A stretch of DNA of 64,000 nt. Origin: Escherichia phage EC.P1. The stretch is taken from sequence record PQ657772.1; one strand, given 5' to 3'. Both the position numbers and the translations under genes were made by a program. Position 1 is the stretch's first letter. Every line of letters begins with the position of its first letter. Shown piece by piece: positions 63,501 through 63,758 of this stretch. The notes below the pieces were generated by a model, which saw nothing but the letters and a program-made list of their open reading frames with translations, had not been told where the DNA came from and made no database searches.

Positions 63501-63758
63501 TTATCTCATAGATCTATGCCAACAATTACGCGGATCTCTTTTAAAAGTACTATCATGATCCTCCTGGCAAGTAATACAATACATGCACCCTATAACGGCC
63601 TGGCGTCGATTCTCAGGGATTTTATCGCCGCAGTCGAGGCAATGTACCAGTGATTCTCTTTGTGCGTTAATTTGCTTTCTAGCGTGGTTAACGGCTGCCT
63701 GAATCACTGCGTGAATCTCGTCTTGTTCGGCCCCGTCTTTCGCGTATCCTACTGCCAT
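63501..63758 (-). CDS. DksA/TraR-family C4 zinc-finger protein
   Basis: CLDCGDKIPENRRQAVIGCMYCITC: two CxxC pairs flanking the IPxxRR motif typical of TraR/DksA. Confidence 0.75.
   Translation of the reverse strand: MAVGYAKDGAEQDEIHAVIQAAVNHARKQINAQRESLVHCLDCGDKIPENRRQAVIGCMYCITCQEDHDSTFKRDPRNCWHRSMR

Follow-up and report, generated by a model that had tools for sequence, protein, structure and literature searches.

Near one end of the window (the whole 64,000-nucleotide stretch of DNA that was analysed) lies a small minus-strand gene for a C4 zinc-finger protein, whose translated 85-aa product is MAVGYAKDGAEQDEIHAVIQAAVNHARKQINAQRESLVHCLDCGDKIPENRRQAVIGCMYCITCQEDHDSTFKRDPRNCWHRSMR. The gene overlaps a short upstream reading frame and is followed by an acetyltransferase gene. 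The features to which we refer in describing this neighborhood are:

63758..63904, minus strand: upstream open reading frame of 48 aa with a TTG start, annotated in fEgEco12 (g029) and 121Q (gene 293)
63767..63770, minus strand: ribosome-binding site GAGG, 8 nt 5' of the ATG and within the upstream reading frame
63501..63758, minus strand: coding sequence of 85 aa, DksA/TraR-superfamily C4 zinc-finger protein of the YbiI type, uninterrupted from ATG to TAA (stop codon 63501-63503)
63467..63494, minus strand: perfect sigma-70 promoter, TTGACA-16-TATAAT, with an AT-rich discriminator, starting 7 nt past the zinc-finger stop
63081..63437, minus strand: GNAT acetyltransferase of 118 aa, directly downstream, with its own perfect promoter
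60016..60270, minus strand: open reading frame of 84 aa with a ParE-like toxin domain (PF24732; 42.5 bits, cut-off 24.4)

The product carries the signature residues C40-x-x-C43, I47-P48-E49-N50-R51-R52 and C61-x-x-C64 (CxxC-N17-CxxC), and the CxxC...IPxxRR...CxxC signature reported in an earlier note on this DNA is indeed present (C40/C43, IPENRR at 47-52, C61/C64). The same note had called the protein phage-encoded, and this holds as well, the 85-aa gene being both present and annotated in near-identical phages. The TAA of the 48-aa reading frame overlaps the ATG of the zinc-finger gene (TAATG), so that the two probably share a transcript and are coupled in translation. A family search with the 48-aa frame returned no match. 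An upstream reading frame also overlaps the zinc-finger start codon in phage CUA3; we considered whether the two upstream frames are homologs and rejected this, the sequences being unrelated by eye.

The 2 kb around the gene are 99% identical to vB_EcoM_JNE01, fEgEco12, WPEC3/5 and Ecwhy_1 and 87.5% identical to 121Q, all of them Asteriusvirus jumbo phages of 350-385 kb; judged by this match, the window is that of an Asteriusvirus-type jumbo coliphage (121Q/fEgEco12 group). In GenBank the proteins of these relatives are labeled “DksA-like zinc-finger protein,” “TraR/DksA C4-type zinc finger protein” or “C-4 type zinc finger protein,” the last of these being the label of the Ecwhy_1 protein, which is 100% identical to the window protein; PHROG 54 (“DksA-like zinc-finger protein”) is matched at E 8e-19. 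The family assignment is therefore already public annotation, and the gene call adds nothing, because identical or nearly identical proteins are already annotated in GenBank and are covered by PHROG 54. The fEgEco12 ortholog, g030 (record positions 11479-11736), falls within the direct terminal repeat of that phage, whose length of 20,993 bp is experimentally supported (PMC13070987), and in the record of vB_Ec-M-J the annotation “Direct Terminal Repeats” extends over the match to the gene.

The gene is functional and conserved. Comparison with the 121Q ortholog gave a dN/dS of 0.14, indicating purifying selection, and an identity of 62-72% is kept in T4-like and other large phages, where synonymous sites are saturated. 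By tblastn, related genes were found in 953 phage records; among the matches listed, those with at least 80% query coverage come from genomes that range from about 77 to 380 kb and in most cases exceed 165 kb, and the match in lambdoid phages is confined to the zinc domain (residues 28-73). A profile search of 1.84 billion representatives returned 2666 clusters at E<=1e-3. The small size of the gene and the existence of overlapping plus-strand reading frames are all that speaks for a chance reading frame or a decaying gene without function, and the chance of this is negligible: the PF01258 score exceeds its threshold, dN/dS is low, the C-terminal tail is conserved across six synonymous codon changes and homologs occur in hundreds of phage records and thousands of representative clusters, so that this reading is refuted by the conservation data.

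The block of consensus promoters in which the earlier note had placed the gene is real. Perfect TTGACA-N16-18-TATAAT sites number 10 in the window, all on the minus strand, where base composition predicts 0.18 (in 200 shuffles the mean was 0.175 and the highest count 2), and 8 of the 10 fall between 56603 and 63494, a part of the window in which the small genes are all on the minus strand. These promoters have A/T-rich upstream flanks and discriminators, and several have a G/C hairpin in the leader. The one at 63467..63494 serves the downstream GNAT gene, not the zinc-finger gene, and no promoter of the zinc-finger gene's own was found within the 64-kb window. In fEgEco12, a TTGACA-17-CATAAT element (L001 8430..8402) precedes the 48-aa reading frame by about 170 nt; by colinearity it would correspond to roughly positions 64051-64079, just past the window end and about 300 nt 5' of the zinc-finger ATG. 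This element is likely the promoter of the gene. Promoter sequence and genome position together suggest that the gene is probably expressed early by the host sigma-70 polymerase. The leader of the 48-aa frame (63905-64000) is unusually dense in GATC/TTGATCA, with about six copies in 95 bp, and has two TATAAT hexamers without a good -35 element. The adjacency to the GNAT gene holds within Asteriusvirus (fEgEco12 g031, 121Q gene 295); a conserved zinc finger-GNAT module was considered and rejected, since the annotated neighbors in CUA3 include no reading frame of GNAT size (118 aa), judged by size alone.

The same region has a repetitive organization. Between 55700 and 63500 the minus strand carries a repeated promoter-leader cassette, made up of an A/T-rich upstream flank, a sigma-70 promoter that fits the consensus perfectly or nearly so, and a discriminator (for instance AGTTTACATCAAG), with examples at 63494..63467, 61845..61818, 61505..61478, 61234..61207, 60804..60776, 58652..58625, 58158..58131 and 56630..56603 (all on the minus strand). 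The cassette promoters often have AGTACT in or beside the spacer, and in many cassettes a G/C hairpin, for instance GAGGGGAA(N)TTCCCCTC, precedes the ribosome-binding site. The cassette is present at least 13 times, in several repeat families. An identical 28-nt hairpin, AAAGGGATTGACTCCGGTCAGTCCCTTT, recurs on the minus strand at 62071..62098, 59064..59091 and 56304..56331, within 93-nt repeats (62019-62111, 59012-59104 and 56252-56344) spaced by about 3.0 and 2.8 kb, and overlaps a promoter-like TTGACT-17-TATTAT; its recurrence suggests either that early-gene cassettes have been duplicated or that they share a regulatory element. A search of the window against Rfam gave no match at gathering thresholds. 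The minus-strand reading frames 61238..61465 and 62256..62531 start upstream of leader hairpins and read through them, giving “GNGSPPNKE”; because shorter internal starts are annotated for the relatives in GenBank, the long forms are probably artefacts of mechanical reading-frame calling. The ParE-like reading frame sits in this block of small, presumably early genes.

The window protein belongs to the DksA/TraR C4 zinc-finger superfamily: PF01258 (zf-dskA_traR) matches residues 39-68 with 36.9 bits (E 3.7e-9), above the gathering score of 24.9 bits. Among NCBIfam models the best-scoring is NF008243 (PRK11019, YbiI type), with 78.6 bits over residues 1-73 against a cut-off of 96, followed by TIGR02419 (TraR subfamily; 49.1 against 59.7), NF010268 (conjugal transfer protein TraR, equivalog; 31.6 against 108) and NF033459 (DksA_like; 14.2 against 105). 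The best sequence match in the PDB is E. coli YbiI (2KGO; E 2e-11, residues 1-69), and the next is TraR (6N57/5W1S; E 5e-6), over residues 18-68 only. By these sequence comparisons, the protein is closest to the uncharacterized bacterial YbiI, not to TraR.

Homologs were compared in an alignment of 29 sequences, from which one phage hit of 145 aa was excluded; every one of the 29 has the four cysteines C40, C43, C61 and C64. The phage group (84-87 aa, 62-96% identity) comes from Asteriusvirus, the T4-like Citrobacter phage Moon and vB_EcoM_RZ, the Yersinia phages MHG19 and fHe-Yen9-01 and contigs of ~350 kb, and the bacterial group consists of YbiI proteins, mostly of 88 aa, with 42-51% identity. 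The YbiI-type family occurs mainly in large virulent phages, whereas the homologs with a canonical DxxDxA motif that have been studied come from temperate phages and plasmids. A 54-aa protein of the Mosigvirus phage vB_EcoM_JS09, MLYDYTGKSEDGVLELLPESAEDDMVVMFCVGCQSMRDEIFKREPRNCWHRSMR (gene JS09_077, L005 1453-1617; PHROG 25948), retains of the phage YbiI-type protein only the C-terminal helix and invariant tail together with the second CxxC, behind an acidic, unrelated N-terminus; by sequence it is either a remnant or an indication that the tail can act as a stand-alone module.

Within the protein, the following parts were distinguished:

63666..63746, minus strand: N-terminal helix, residues 5-31, predicted to be single and long (AlphaFold2; hhalign register offset 3), corresponding to TraR N-helix 2-27
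63717..63737, minus strand: acidic stretch, residues 8-14 (DGAEQDE), within G[FYW]AKDGAEQ, from the alignments; not a canonical DxxDxA
63567..63641, minus strand: C4 zinc ribbon, residues 40-64 (C40, C43, C61, C64), from Pfam, PDB matches and the alignments
63603-63620, minus strand: IPENRR, the equivalent of TraR I44-R49, inside the zinc ribbon
63543..63575, minus strand: short C-terminal helix, residues 62-72, predicted (AlphaFold2) and aligned with TraR 59-69
63504..63545, minus strand: tail, residues 72-85 (FKRDPRNCWHRSMR), invariant among phage homologs and predicted to be disordered

An AlphaFold2 model built on the 29-sequence alignment shows a helix at 5-31, the zinc ribbon, a helix at 62-72 and a low-confidence tail at 73-85, with moderate confidence overall (mean pLDDT 69; below 50 at both ends). 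TraR consists of an N-terminal helix (2-27) that runs down the RNA polymerase (RNAP) secondary channel, a globular domain (28-57) and a C-terminal helix (58-73) (PMC6970531), and the predicted architecture of the window protein is that of TraR, with no DksA-like coiled coil. The N-terminal coiled coil that the earlier note regarded as typical of the family is absent, but TraR, too, does without one. A Foldseek search of the PDB placed YbiI on top, followed by RNAP-bound TraR (6N57_M; TM 0.57 normalised to TraR, 68 columns) and then by DksA in RNAP complexes (7KHI, a weak match at E 0.07).

Alignment by hhalign with a profile of TraR, lambda Orf73 and P2 Orf82 gave a probability of 99.3% over 57 ungapped columns, covering only residues 17-73 against TraR 14-70. 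The TraR sequence was checked against 5W1S, and the TraR profile is shallow, since a TraR-seeded homolog search returned only close relatives (at least 67% identity). In this register, TraR P45, E46, R48 and R49, which contact the beta' rim helices and beta'Si3 (PMC9239242, PMC6970531), correspond to P48, E49, R51 and R52 of the window protein; P48, R51 and R52 are invariant in the 29-sequence alignment and E49 is invariant or nearly so. TraR K50 and P43 are replaced by Q53 and K46 and are not conserved in the window protein. The predicted helix at 62-72 is shorter than that of TraR (58-73), shares few identities with it and is followed by an unrelated tail.

The N-terminal tip departs from the known regulators. 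The DxxDxA motif, found at the tip of the DksA coiled coil, in lambda Orf73 and at the N-terminus of TraR, where it reaches the RNAP active site, is needed for function, though binding does not depend on it: lambda Orf73 is crippled by D3N or D6N, the X. bovienii homolog Gp34, which is without D3, is still active, though less so, and an N-terminal extension has been suggested to weaken VHML Orf8 (PMC9239242). In the window protein the canonical motif is absent at the aligned positions, TraR D3, D6 and A8 being replaced by A6, G9 and E11, and four extra residues precede the N-terminal helix. The register of the tip was obtained as an ungapped extension of the 17-73 alignment together with the continuous helix of the AlphaFold2 model; it relies on this extension because the tip lies outside the hhalign alignment with the TraR profile, and because a MAFFT alignment with TraR, lambda Orf73 and P2 Orf82 placed the helix gaps arbitrarily and was rejected for this purpose.

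What the family conserves instead is MAxG[FYW]AKDGAxQ (MAVGYAKDGA in the window protein), with M1, A2 and G4 invariant and K7, G9 and A10 at least 90% conserved in the 29-sequence alignment. Among the 121 best representatives with the C4 motif, 78 have an N-terminal MAxG[FWY]xxDGA, whereas a DxxDxA anywhere ahead of the first cysteine occurs in only 4. Acidic residues are nevertheless close by (D8, E11, D13 and E14): D8-G-A10 resembles the “DxA” half of DxxDxA, shifted by one residue, and D8xxE11 of the phage clade has the same i/i+3 spacing as DxxD, shifted by two. Of the acidic tip that the earlier note had likewise taken as typical of the family, the canonical motif is thus missing, but a different tip, also acidic and strongly conserved, is present.

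At the other end, all phage homologs finish in FKRxPRNCWHRSMR, a tail that TraR lacks. Relative to the T4-like phage CUA3, synonymous divergence has reached saturation (pS 0.91), yet over the last 14 residues there is a single amino-acid replacement, a conservative one, alongside six synonymous codon differences. This near-identity in the face of saturation points to selection on the peptide itself and not to recent transfer. The bacterial YbiI tail, [YF]NRRGSKDSQLR, is equally conserved, and because intermediate forms occur (HNRKVWHRSMR and YNRKANYHTQLR), the sequences suggest that the two tails are homologous, the phage tail being a variant of NRRGSKDSQLR. [quoted passage not shown]

The earlier note had concluded from the signature that the protein is a TraR/DksA-type secondary-channel binder. 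Its placement in the superfamily and a TraR-like fold are borne out, but the signature alone does not identify a regulator of this type because some C4 members of the family act otherwise: not all of these zinc-finger proteins act like DksA, and DxxDxA is required (Gopalkrishnan et al., 2022, PMC9239242), whereas the window protein is of the YbiI type and has no such motif. As a claim of secondary-channel regulation it is plausible but exceeds the evidence.

Binding in the secondary channel of the host RNAP would, on our analysis, be the most likely function. We lean, with moderate confidence, toward a TraR-like docking on the host RNAP that would affect initiation while sparing the consensus promoters of the phage, a reading based on the fold, the conserved contact residues, the genomic context and precedent, the last comprising the five phage TraR homologs tested and the rescue of dksA auxotrophy by YbiI at high expression (data not shown in PMC2613031). 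Host sigma-70 RNAP would express the gene, probably early and together with the 48-aa reading frame, from the promoter just past the window end; the N-terminal helix would occupy the secondary channel, with the zinc domain (P48, E49, R51, R52) docked on the beta' rim helices as in TraR; and host transcription would shift away from promoters with unstable open complexes (rRNA, ribosomal-protein), while the phage consensus promoters, with their AT-rich discriminators and stable open complexes, would be spared. With its non-canonical tip and invariant basic tail, the protein would probably differ from TraR in the strength or the outcome of the interaction. Against TraR-like docking stand the absence of DxxDxA, the four-residue N-terminal extension, the lack of conservation at the K50 and P43 positions, the unrelated tail beyond residue 73 and scores far below the cut-offs of the TraR and DksA NCBIfam models. 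In the literature, RNAP-binding data are published for no YbiI-type protein, and our searches turned up no experiments on phage proteins of the YbiI type or on transcription in Asteriusvirus.

Conserved rim-binding residues combined with a missing tip motif would also fit a protein that binds the TraR/DksA site without inhibiting initiation and keeps DksA/ppGpp and GreA/GreB out of the secondary channel. The tip aspartates of DksA are essential for its function and dispensable for its binding (PMC9239242), the invariant basic tail could add affinity, and the distribution of the family, mainly in large virulent phages and set apart from the canonical DxxDxA homologs of temperate phages and plasmids, points the same way; if true, such a blocker would shield transcription, including rRNA synthesis, from the stringent response during the long jumbo-phage cycle. 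We consider this unlikely, since YbiI at high expression reportedly complements a dksA null mutation (it rescued dksA auxotrophy; data not shown in PMC2613031), which argues for a DksA-like and not an anti-DksA action, and since the acidic pair of the phage clade (D8 and E11, i/i+3) might replace the tip. The two best-conserved segments of the family, MAxG[FWY]AKDGA and the C-terminal tail, are without a counterpart in TraR, and it could be argued from this that YbiI-type proteins function outside the secondary channel altogether, the N-terminal motif and the tail binding another host partner (in nucleic-acid machinery, or in metal or stress physiology) and the DksA/TraR fold serving as a scaffold only. 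Consistent with such a role, the uncharacterized YbiI is rpoS-dependent and encoded in an iron-related operon, some family members of intermediate length do not act like DksA (PMC9239242), and what the 54-aa Mosigvirus derivative has preserved is limited to the helix, the tail and the second CxxC. It is a rather improbable role, however, given that R51/R52 and P48/E49, the equivalents of RNAP contacts in TraR, are invariant or nearly invariant, that the best structural hits are without exception secondary-channel factors of RNAP and that no search suggested an alternative partner.

TraR-like docking on the host RNAP remains our preferred reading. The reprogramming of host RNAP by phage TraR homologs has already been shown experimentally; what the present gene brings to light is a subgroup without the working motif of TraR and DksA that nevertheless keeps the polymerase-docking residues and has strongly conserved ends of its own. 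Tentatively, and with some doubt on our part, the YbiI-type proteins encoded by large virulent phages (those of Asteriusvirus and several T4-like genera, and the jumbo phages of Salmonella and Yersinia) might form a functionally distinct branch of secondary-channel proteins, with their own tip and tail and an outcome unlike that of TraR, which may, for example, be the blocking of DksA/ppGpp and Gre factors or a different host target. If so, they would give a first access to the function of the bacterial YbiI family, which is widespread (2666 representative clusters), and the phage protein could show whether this large uncharacterized family acts on RNAP at all.

Among known systems, E. coli YbiI (2KGO) is the best match to the window protein in both sequence and structure. 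The two have in common MAxG[FWY]AxDxA, a zinc ribbon with IPxxRR and a short basic tail ending in R, and they are of similar length (85 aa in the window protein, 88 aa in YbiI), but their identity is only about 40-50%, the tails differ (PRNCWHRSMR against NRRGSKDSQLR) and position 11 is E in the phage clade and V in the bacterial proteins. The window gene is phage-borne and associated with sigma-70 consensus promoters, whereas chromosomal ybiI is rpoS-dependent (PMC4447067) and lies in an iron-related operon; Blankschien et al. considered YbiI more likely to be related to iron metabolism (PMC2613031). With TraR of the F plasmid (6N57, 5W1S), the window protein shares a three-part architecture without a coiled coil and the conserved P45, E46, R48 and R49, but it lacks DxxDxA, has four extra N-terminal residues, Q in place of K50 and K in place of P43, and a shorter C-terminal helix that gives way to a 13-residue tail. 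DksA has the same Pfam zinc-finger domain, but is a protein of 151 aa with a two-helix coiled coil, a DxxDxA tip and ppGpp-binding residues, in contrast to the 85 aa and single helix of the window protein.

The phage proteins lambda Orf73 and P2 Orf82 are also small members of the superfamily with a zinc ribbon and the RR pair, and are 24-35% identical to the window protein in a MAFFT alignment; they differ in coming from temperate phages, in carrying D3xxD6 at the extreme N-terminus and in being without the YbiI-type tip and tail. Both have been shown experimentally to bind RNAP; in all, five phage TraR homologs were tested, and each of them binds RNAP and inhibits rrnB P1, while the burst size is increased by lambda Orf73 (PMC9239242). 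Lambda Orf73 and P2 Orf82 are, for the protein described here, a precedent for the reprogramming of host transcription by a phage without ppGpp.
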